Shown here in pieces: positions 3,717 through 4,148 of a stretch of 4,837 nucleotides of DNA (position 1 is its first letter; each line of letters begins with the position of its first letter). The notes beneath the pieces are model-generated. The model was given only the letters and a program-made list of their open reading frames with translations. It made no database searches and had not been told where the DNA came from. This stretch comes from Escherichia phage CBA6. The translations under genes were made by a program, and so were the position numbers. Where the stretch lies: sequence record KM389299.1. One strand, 5' to 3'.

Positions 3717-4148
3717 ATGAACACAAAACAGCGTGGGATGATAGGGGAAACGAGATTTCTGTTCAAATGCACAGAACTTGGGATCACAGTTTCACAACCT
3801 TTCGGTGATAACGCACCATATGATTTTGTGATTGATGTGAACGGTCGTTTGCTCAAGGTGCAGTGTAAGACCTTGATGCTGGACAAGGGCACTTATCTTC
3901 TTGATACCAGTACGACCAATTTCTACAATGGAAAATGTAAATCCGTATACCATGGTGAGAAAGTTGATCTCTATTATGGTTATCACCCTGAAACTAAAAT
4001 TGAAGTTTTGGTAGATCCCAAGCAATACCCTAAAAATTTACGTTTGAGGGTGGAACCACCTAAAAATAATCAGGTGATCGGGATCAAATGGTTAAAGGAT
4101 TTCCTGTTTGATGACGTCATTCAGGAAATTATGAAACAATGGGTGTGA
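3717..4148 (+). CDS. PD-(D/E)xK-like (Hjc/YraN-like fold) nuclease, putative homing or structure-specific endonuclease, 143 aa
   Basis: ATG 3717 with AGGA 4 nt upstream, stop TGA 4146-4148. N-terminal motif GETRFLFKCTELGITVSQPFGDNAPYDFVIDVNGRLLKVQCKT matches the G-E ... (P)D ... (D/E)xK layout of restriction-endonuclease-fold proteins, with Q in the usual acidic position of the last motif. Confidence 0.7.
   Translation: MNTKQRGMIGETRFLFKCTELGITVSQPFGDNAPYDFVIDVNGRLLKVQCKTLMLDKGTYLLDTSTTNFYNGKCKSVYHGEKVDLYYGYHPETKIEVLVDPKQYPKNLRLRVEPPKNNQVIGIKWLKDFLFDDVIQEIMKQWV

Follow-up and report, generated by a model that had tools for sequence, protein, structure and literature searches.

The closest described counterparts of the gene considered here, an open reading frame (ORF) at positions 3717–4148 of a 4,837-nt stretch of Escherichia phage CBA6 (record KM389299.1; the whole of this stretch is referred to below as the window), are two homing endonucleases associated with tRNA genes. 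I-Ssp6803I is encoded in a group I intron of Synechocystis and homes into the tRNA-fMet gene. According to reviews, this DNA endonuclease is active and site-specific and has been solved in complex with DNA, bound as a homotetramer to one long pseudo-palindromic DNA site, and it employs one metal ion per active site, compared with two in PvuII and in the DREN domain of SPARDA. SegB of phage T4 is a free-standing GIY-YIG homing endonuclease located in the T4 tRNA cluster; both its activity and its homing are experimental findings (PMC2330249). The preferred site of SegB is the 3′ end of the tRNA-Asn gene, comprising the T-arm motif GGTTCRANTCC plus CCAR, and neighbouring tRNA genes are carried along with it (PMC2330249). 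The presence of HNH genes and SegB in phage tRNA clusters is already known. Stand-alone genes of Pfam family PF11645 (PDDEXK_5, I-Ssp6803I-like) have been counted as homing endonucleases in the Jug jumbo phages (PMC12880540), and PF11645 genes of cyanophage Sf-FR1 have been noted and grouped with defence-associated domains (PMC12284385); the accessible parts of both papers name the domain without tRNA adjacency.

The CBA6 gene, like those of the Jug phages and Sf-FR1, is a stand-alone member of this Pfam family in a phage genome. It is best read as an intact free-standing homing endonuclease gene, whose product would cut nuclease-less relatives at tRNA-Asn and which would be copied into them together with tRNA-Asn. 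The overall probability of this reading is estimated at about 0.7; the odds that the target lies in or at the tRNA-Asn gene itself are about even. As with SegB, the nuclease gene is free-standing between phage tRNA genes and is absent from close relatives; its start 20 nt past the CCA of tRNA-Asn recalls the SegB site, and tRNA-Asn travels along with it. The fold and motif are unrelated (PD-(D/E)xK versus GIY-YIG), making this an analogy rather than a homology, and homing, experimental in SegB, is what we infer for the CBA6 gene. The differences from I-Ssp6803I concern the setting and the sequence: I-Ssp6803I lies inside a group I intron of tRNA-fMet in a cyanobacterial chromosome, whereas the window gene is free-standing beside tRNA-Asn in a virulent enterobacterial phage; the two proteins are only 22–24% identical, and the helix-1 glutamate E11 of the window protein aligns with Gln in I-Ssp6803I.

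Family assignment and fold

The match of the ORF product to PF11645 has E=6.7e-26 and spans profile positions 1–137 of 138, with a score of 91.4 bits (cut-off 26.1). Profile searches, which an earlier note on this DNA had named as able to overturn its PD-(D/E)xK assignment, thus gave no different fold but an end-to-end match to this family. Among the other resources, PHROG assigned the protein to phrog_5018, of unknown function (E=1.8e-35), NCBIfam gave no match for it, and the sole PADLOC match was a model named ‘HEase, homing endonuclease’ (E=1.2e-11), with no defence genes nearby within the window. I-Ssp6803I (PDB 2OST) is the sole solved relative found by sequence, with E=9e-9 for the single sequence and 1.4e-21 for a 50-sequence family profile.

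An AlphaFold model calculated from eight homologs has a predicted local distance difference test (pLDDT) value of 86 and a predicted template modelling score (pTM) of 0.81. The model comprises a helix (residues 3–20) followed by a β-meander; D36 starts the strand 37–41, and Q49 and K51 are located on the strand 44–56. A Foldseek search with the model placed four 2OST chains on top, with template modelling (TM) scores of 0.68–0.76, followed by Hjc resolvases and SPARDA DREN domains with TM about 0.5. The PD-(D/E)xK fold is borne out by both the Pfam match and this structural comparison. With a full-length match above the threshold, the 2OST fold and the D-x12-Q-x-K signature described below, membership of the PF11645, or I-Ssp6803I-like, nuclease family is near certain. 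The solved relative is a DNA endonuclease; an enzyme acting on RNA, for example one that processes or cleaves the neighbouring tRNA transcripts, not DNA, is very unlikely.

The motifs GETRF (residues 10–14), PYDFVIDVNG (34–43) and KVQCKT (47–52), from which a Hjc/YraN-like protein had been proposed, were all found at these positions. The proposal was right as to the fold and one step too distant as to the family, the nearest structure being 2OST. No Pfam Hjc match was obtained at E≤1, and the family profile found no Hjc chain in the PDB even at E≤10. Hjc family membership was rejected on the lack of a sequence-family match and on the Gln in place of the E of E-x-K; YraN (UPF0102) membership was rejected because a sequence-family match was likewise missing. 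A Hjc-like, structure-specific nuclease, for instance one resolving Holliday junctions in phage recombination or packaging, would share the general fold, but it is highly improbable here. The sequence-specific homing endonuclease 2OST is the best match by a wide margin and, compared with Hjc and Hje, the CBA6 gene is optional and tRNA-linked and does not belong to core recombination: it is absent from most close relatives, unlike a core resolvase, and a resolvase would leave the tRNA adjacency unexplained.

The copy in Klebsiella phage FKP10 (PP974338.1, 156113–156544), which encodes a 98.6% identical protein, is annotated as ‘methyltransferase’, and most other copies are annotated as ‘hypothetical protein’. 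Public annotations of the nuclease copies could be corrected to PD-(D/E)xK homing endonuclease.

Active site

The putative catalytic residues are spaced as D36-x12-Q49-x-K51 and, in the predicted model, lie on core strands two and three. Judging from this spacing and from the model, Q49 fills the (D/E) slot of (D/E)xK, so the glutamine noticed earlier does occupy the usual acidic position. By topology and spacing, Q49 is the probable counterpart of Glu in the ExK of Hjc.

An exhaustive HMMER search yielded 5,683 representatives at E≤1e-3, and conservation was assessed in 161 domains from 157 cluster representatives with no more than 50% mutual identity. Q49 is conserved in 99% of these domains, K51 and D36 in 98% each, G7 and R111 in 96% each, D84 in 90% and E11 in 88%. 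In the 50-sequence alignment, which has a mean identity of 36%, the only invariant columns are Q49, D36 and Y35. The KVQVK of I-Ssp6803I aligns with the KVQCK of the window protein, and the D, Q and K of 2OST match D36, Q49 and K51. According to the alignment, the conservation and the reviews, D-x12-Q-x-K is the normal catalytic signature of PF11645, including the role of its Gln.

The Q-x-K arrangement had been interpreted as a variant that might indicate altered metal coordination or a protein that only binds DNA. As a near-invariant family signature, present in an active enzyme, it is not a variant. Altered metal coordination is plausible by analogy with I-Ssp6803I and its single metal ion, and D-x12-Q-x-K is compatible with single-metal chemistry. 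PD-(D/E)xK enzymes frequently lose their activity when the acidic residue is replaced, which would favour a catalytically dead, DNA-binding-only protein. The Gln, however, is common to the family and to I-Ssp6803I, an active endonuclease with a solved DNA complex, and is conserved along with D36 and K51 in the pattern of a functional active site. The window protein, moreover, keeps E11, which I-Ssp6803I lacks; a dead protein is therefore extremely unlikely.

Insertion site and distribution

The window is the tRNA region of a Kuttervirus-like phage (Ackermannviridae). As had been stated, the nuclease ORF lies within a tRNA array: five tRNA genes (Met, Trp, Asn, Gln and Tyr) are present in the window, all on the plus strand (Table 1). 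The gap between tRNA-Asn and the start codon contains a Shine–Dalgarno-like AGGA at 3709–3712, 4 nt ahead of the ATG; the gap between the end of the ORF and tRNA-Gln is 376 nt. No intrinsic terminators were found in 2600–4837, and promoter-like matches in this region were no better than those in shuffled sequences, so that no dedicated promoter is claimed. No Rfam match to a group I intron was obtained in the window at E≤0.1, and the flanking tRNA genes are uninterrupted; the nuclease gene is consequently free-standing. The intron-encoded class with its I- prefix was considered and set aside, as the ORF is in no intron; the F- prefix would apply.

Records matching the surrounding DNA of the window number 227. 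The nuclease gene was found by tblastn in eight Ackermannviridae records: FKP10, cp19, SM5, Chennai, SPTD1, PM10 (two accessions) and phage 241. Phage UTK0005 presents a natural empty site, in which the CCA of tRNA-Asn is followed by 7 nt and then GGGTGTGAACGAAAG. The cassette, composed of the spacer and the ORF, sits precisely between the tRNA-Asn CCA and the conserved flank present in UTK0005. Such presence and absence at one precise site, with an empty allele, is the pattern by which a free-standing homing endonuclease gene is recognised. Owing to a 1-nt difference in the shared flank, the alleles of PM10 and SPTD1 are longer, at 163 aa. A search for a target-site duplication or for repeats flanking the cassette gave only short, inexact matches, no more than expected.

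The site is occupied differently in other phages. An unrelated 136-bp segment is present there in 102 records, including Cba120, and Vi01 has a different segment of 108 bp. The 136-bp segment has acceptor-like ends, GTCGGGT...GCCCGAC, and a T-arm-like GGGGTTTGAATCCCC; neither ARAGORN nor Rfam gave a call for it, and its folding was no better than that of shuffled sequences (z -1.46). It may be a tRNA remnant.

Selection and transfer with tRNA-Asn

Comparison of the nuclease gene with the PM10 allele showed 30 synonymous and 8 non-synonymous differences, with a ratio of non-synonymous to synonymous differences per site (pN/pS) of 0.07. The FKP10 allele differs by five synonymous changes and one non-synonymous change; against phage 241, synonymous sites are near saturation and pN/pS is 0.16. 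Across the allele comparisons, pN/pS is 0.05–0.16, which indicates that the gene is kept under purifying selection.

A table of segment-by-segment identities to FKP10 gives 100% for tRNA-Asn, 100% for the spacer and 99% for the nuclease body. Of the adjoining segments, ORF74 reaches 75%, tRNA-Trp 87% and the right flank 88%; most other sequence is unalignable. Given 99–100% identity inside flanks of 75–88%, the tRNA-Asn and nuclease block moved recently between genera. Transfer of this block is the signature expected of homing with co-conversion; the FKP10 identities, set against those of the flanks, show the horizontal spread with co-conversion that characterises free-standing homing endonucleases. 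Current or recent mobility of the nuclease gene is likely. The homing-type reading put forward in the earlier note has thus been strengthened by presence and absence in close relatives, by the natural empty site and by the tract common to two genera. The window as a whole is a mosaic: 1–443, 3295–3535 and 4245–4837 are 99–100% Vi01-like, and 444–3294 is 98–100% Cba120-like.

The tRNA-Asn allele of the window is 88–93% identical to those of nuclease-less Kuttervirus phages (Cba120, SenASZ3 and Vi01) and 71% identical to that of UTK0005 in the aligned part. At least three tRNA-Asn alleles occur in Kuttervirus, namely a window/FKP10 type, Cba120/PM10/Vi01 types and a UTK0005 type, with compensated differences in their acceptor and anticodon stems. 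This diversity is unusually high, given that Kuttervirus genomes are otherwise 92–99% identical, and is in keeping with this tRNA having been replaced through exchange more than once. The nuclease copy of phage 241 has diverged, with 74% nucleotide identity over the gene body and 79% protein identity (tblastn).

In FKP10 (locus L003, 694–2694), a perfect 1001-bp tandem duplication with 100% identity contains tRNA-Met, tRNA-Arg and two small ORFs; it ends inside tRNA-Trp, directly upstream of tRNA-Asn and the nuclease gene. The duplication may have arisen by segmental amplification driven by the nuclease, of the sort reported for SegB, or may be an artefact of assembly.

These observations bear on the possibility that the nuclease has been domesticated for the benefit of the phage, either excluding competitors by cutting their tRNA regions or amplifying and exchanging anti-defence tRNA genes. 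According to a 2026 paper, SegB of T4-like phages amplifies tRNA loci that counter host tRNA-targeting defences. The strong purifying selection, the tight tRNA linkage (including loci, described below, in which the gene and tRNA-Asn form an isolated two-gene module) and the FKP10 duplication of tRNA genes just upstream of the nuclease copy also speak for domestication. On the other hand, an optional selfish gene would be distributed as this one is, in only eight of more than 220 related records, and the possible artefact in FKP10 lessens the weight of the duplication. Domestication is judged unlikely. It and homing are not mutually exclusive, sharing the same mechanism of site-specific cutting and recombination.

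Association of PF11645 with tRNA genes

IMG/VR was scanned with a degenerate DNA pattern for the motif PFGDNxxYD, and the hits were confirmed with the hidden Markov model of the family, giving 103 loci in 47 clusters at 60% identity. A same-strand tRNA gene within 60 nt was found in 27 of these 47 viral lineages, compared with 4.6 expected if the gene is placed at random in these loci; a value of 14 was not surpassed in any of 200,000 simulations. With loci centred on the gene, the control errs on the conservative side. The neighbour is tRNA-Asn in 11 of the 27 lineages, although its share among all tRNAs of these loci is 7.1% (p=1e-6). Five lineages have no tRNA other than tRNA-Asn in the examined locus, and there it abuts the nuclease homolog; within one protein clade, the homolog can be found on either side of tRNA-Asn.

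Homologs linked to tRNA genes were seen in Straboviridae, Demerecviridae, Ounavirinae and Herelleviridae, in a cyanophage and in an archaeal virus. In annotated phages of unrelated families, the homolog is always in or beside tRNA genes (eight cases). It overlaps tRNA-Met in phi-pp2 and tRNA-Ile in My1; it lies 44 nt before tRNA-Asn in J2-1, 137 nt before tRNA-Arg in EFP01 and 1 nt before tRNA-Tyr in UPEC06; it follows tRNA-Arg by 21 nt in Herod, starts about 2 nt after tRNA-Asn in archaeal virus HSTV-4 and is placed between tRNA-Arg and tRNA-Val in cyanophage Sf-FR1. In cellular genomes, a tRNA gene was present within 400 nt in 57 of the 74 confirmed loci, mainly tRNA-Asp in haloarchaea, tRNA-Lys in Ktedonobacteria and tRNA-Pro.

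The isotype of the neighbour tracks the protein phylogeny. The nearest relative below 60% identity shares the isotype in 55 of 118 cases, compared with 18 expected and a maximum of 31 in 2,000 permutations; for Asn alone, the proportion is 13 of 16. The nearest relative of the window gene below 60% identity is the J2-1 copy, which is likewise beside tRNA-Asn. No report of isotype-structured PF11645 tRNA linkage or of its phage tRNA-Asn module was found in a search that was light on subscription journals, and a prior description is possible.

Several bacterial loci combine the gene with an intron. In one bacterial genome (L151, 4279–5008), a PF11645 gene is located inside a group I intron of tRNA-Met. 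In three others (L175, 630–1324; L191, 5360–6059; L234, 4076–4791), a free-standing PF11645 gene lies 3–16 nt upstream of an intron-bearing tRNA, whose group I intron of about 215–225 nt was confirmed with Rfam. The ARAGORN isotypes of the interrupted tRNAs (Asp, Thr) may be wrong through a known 2-nt boundary problem. In the three loci and L151, an endonuclease gene seems to have been caught on its way into a tRNA intron, at intermediate stages and at the final one, respectively. Where homologs lie upstream of a tRNA, their frame usually runs 7–40 nt into the 5′ end of the tRNA (L004, L005, L009, L013, L037, L066, L067, L091 and others), and the HNH frame of the window likewise runs into the 5′ end of tRNA-Met. 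With such an overlap, RNase P processing would cut the mRNA ahead of the stop codon.

A wider proposal is put forward tentatively, with a probability a little short of even: PF11645 as a whole would consist of tRNA-gene-directed homing endonucleases of bacterial viruses, archaeal viruses, bacteria and archaea. Its clades would be dedicated to isotypes, namely tRNA-Asn in many phages, tRNA-Asp in haloarchaea, tRNA-Lys in Ktedonobacteria and tRNA-fMet introns in cyanobacteria. Free-standing members would ferry the adjacent tRNA gene between phages, shaping tRNA repertoires. Three arrangements (a free-standing gene by an intron-less tRNA, a free-standing gene by an intron-containing tRNA and an intron-encoded gene) would mark steps along a single path leading to mobile tRNA introns. 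The tRNA arms, with their 5-bp stem and 7-nt loop, would provide partly palindromic sites for a symmetric PD-(D/E)xK oligomer.

Proposed mechanism

In CBA6, the nuclease gene probably shares a transcript with the tRNAs, the AGGA serving as its own ribosome-binding site in translation. During co-infection, the enzyme would act, by analogy with I-Ssp6803I, probably as a tetramer with one metal ion per active site. It would cut a long, partly palindromic site in or at the edge of the tRNA-Asn region of a nuclease-less phage; the stem-loop arms of the tRNA could be natural sites of this kind for a symmetric oligomer. Repair by recombination with the nuclease-bearing genome would then bring a copy of the nuclease gene into the recipient, together with the tRNA-Asn next to it (co-conversion). 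The carrier could be protected by the insertion directly after CCA, which could split a site spanning the 3′ end of the tRNA and the flank; or, as with SegB, the enzyme may tolerate a degree of self-cleavage.

A number of points weigh against homing at tRNA-Asn and against its extension to the family. No immunity-conferring difference in tRNA-Asn was found between the nuclease-bearing and nuclease-less genomes compared: both groups have the same T-arm, the anticodon arm of Cba120 is that of the window, and PM10, which bears the nuclease, shares the Cba120-type acceptor stem. In phage 241, neither tRNA-Asn nor tRNA-Trp is present upstream of the nuclease copy, indicating that the tRNA is not obligatory and that the linkage can be broken. 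Cleavage and target, for the window protein and for all phage members, are predictions from sequence. The survey of tRNA adjacency took in only PF11645 members with the PFGDNxxYD motif, and about one third of the viral lineages have no tRNA in the examined locus, most of these belonging to a divergent subgroup with partial profile matches. Since tRNA arrays attract other homing endonucleases (HNH here, SegB in T4), adjacency could partly reflect permissive insertion sites, and the haloarchaeal tRNA-Asp cases may represent one vertically inherited arrangement, not independent events.

Neighbouring genes and other features

The coordinates of the features are given in Table 1. The HNH gene, the second nuclease gene among the tRNAs, differs from its Cba120 counterpart by a single-base nonsense change, TAA at 3035–3037 versus TAT (Tyr), upstream of the motif EIDHVDENKYN. 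Its frame is otherwise intact, and its 3′ end overlaps the 5′ end of tRNA-Met by 10 nt. The gene is absent from PM10, Vi01, phage 241 and SenASZ3. It is either a fresh pseudogene or dependent on read-through. The suggestion that two unrelated nuclease families are interleaved with the tRNAs through repeated invasion therefore stands in so far as the HNH gene is also variably present; with its nonsense codon, only one of the two nucleases is intact.

Table 1. Features of the window and the alternative segment of Cba120
Feature	Position	Strand	Remarks
HNH homing endonuclease gene	2816–3229	+	Homolog of Cba120 orf221; stop at 3227–3229
tRNA-Met	3220–3294	+	
tRNA-Trp	3536–3611	+	
tRNA-Asn(GTT)	3621–3696	+	Partner of the nuclease gene; acceptor stem GATGGTG/CACCATC
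Shared tract, inferred mobile unit	3621–4133	+	tRNA-Asn, spacer and nuclease body; 99–100% identity to Klebsiella phage FKP10 (genus Taipeivirus)
Spacer	3697–3716	+	20 nt, from the CCA end of tRNA-Asn to ATG; part of the inserted cassette
Nuclease gene	3717–4148	+	ATG start, 143 aa; PF11645 (PDDEXK_5, I-Ssp6803I-like), probable free-standing homing endonuclease gene
Active-site codon E11	3747–3749	+	gaa
Active-site codon D36	3822–3824	+	gat
Active-site codon Q49	3861–3863	+	cag
Active-site codon K51	3867–3869	+	aag
Right junction	4134–4154	+	Last ORF codons and stop (..AAACAATGGGTGTGA) within sequence common to nuclease-less relatives
tRNA-Gln	4525–4600	+	
tRNA-Tyr	4750–4831	+	
136-bp alternative segment	Cba120 (locus L001), 5226–5361		Same site as window 3698–4133

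Two further ORFs, both on the plus strand, match protein families of unknown function. ORF 51–443 matches the C-terminal 130 residues of the 190-residue profile of phrog_3788 (E=1.2e-71). ORF 3308–3532, located between tRNA-Met and tRNA-Trp, matches an internal part of the 262-residue profile of phrog_3684 (E=5.4e-27).

A stretch of 2.3 kb at 444–2773 contains no ORF longer than 80 aa and is 94–99% conserved among Kuttervirus phages. The exact T-arm motif GGTTCRANTCC occurs inside it at 1148, 1560 and 1688, with a fourth occurrence at 4719; in the window, the motif has nine matches, including five in the called tRNAs, versus 0.6 expected. With relaxed settings, ARAGORN reported tRNA-like genes at 1099–1169, 1636–1712 and 4659–4739, which are probably decayed or unusual tRNAs missed by standard tools.

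Biological significance

The glutamine that had appeared anomalous is the hallmark of a solved homing endonuclease family, and the gene can therefore be annotated with confidence. Beyond this phage, the link between a compact nuclease family and tRNA genes appears to extend over viruses and cells of very different kinds. If confirmed, this association would account for some of the mosaic variability seen in phage tRNA arrays and would represent a second, structurally unrelated case of SegB-like tRNA-gene homing. It would also supply natural intermediates for the entry of an endonuclease gene into tRNA introns, as well as a collection of small PD-(D/E)xK enzymes, specific for long sites, whose targets in tRNA genes can be predicted. 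In therapeutic Kuttervirus phages, tRNA regions would be exchange hot spots in mixed infections.

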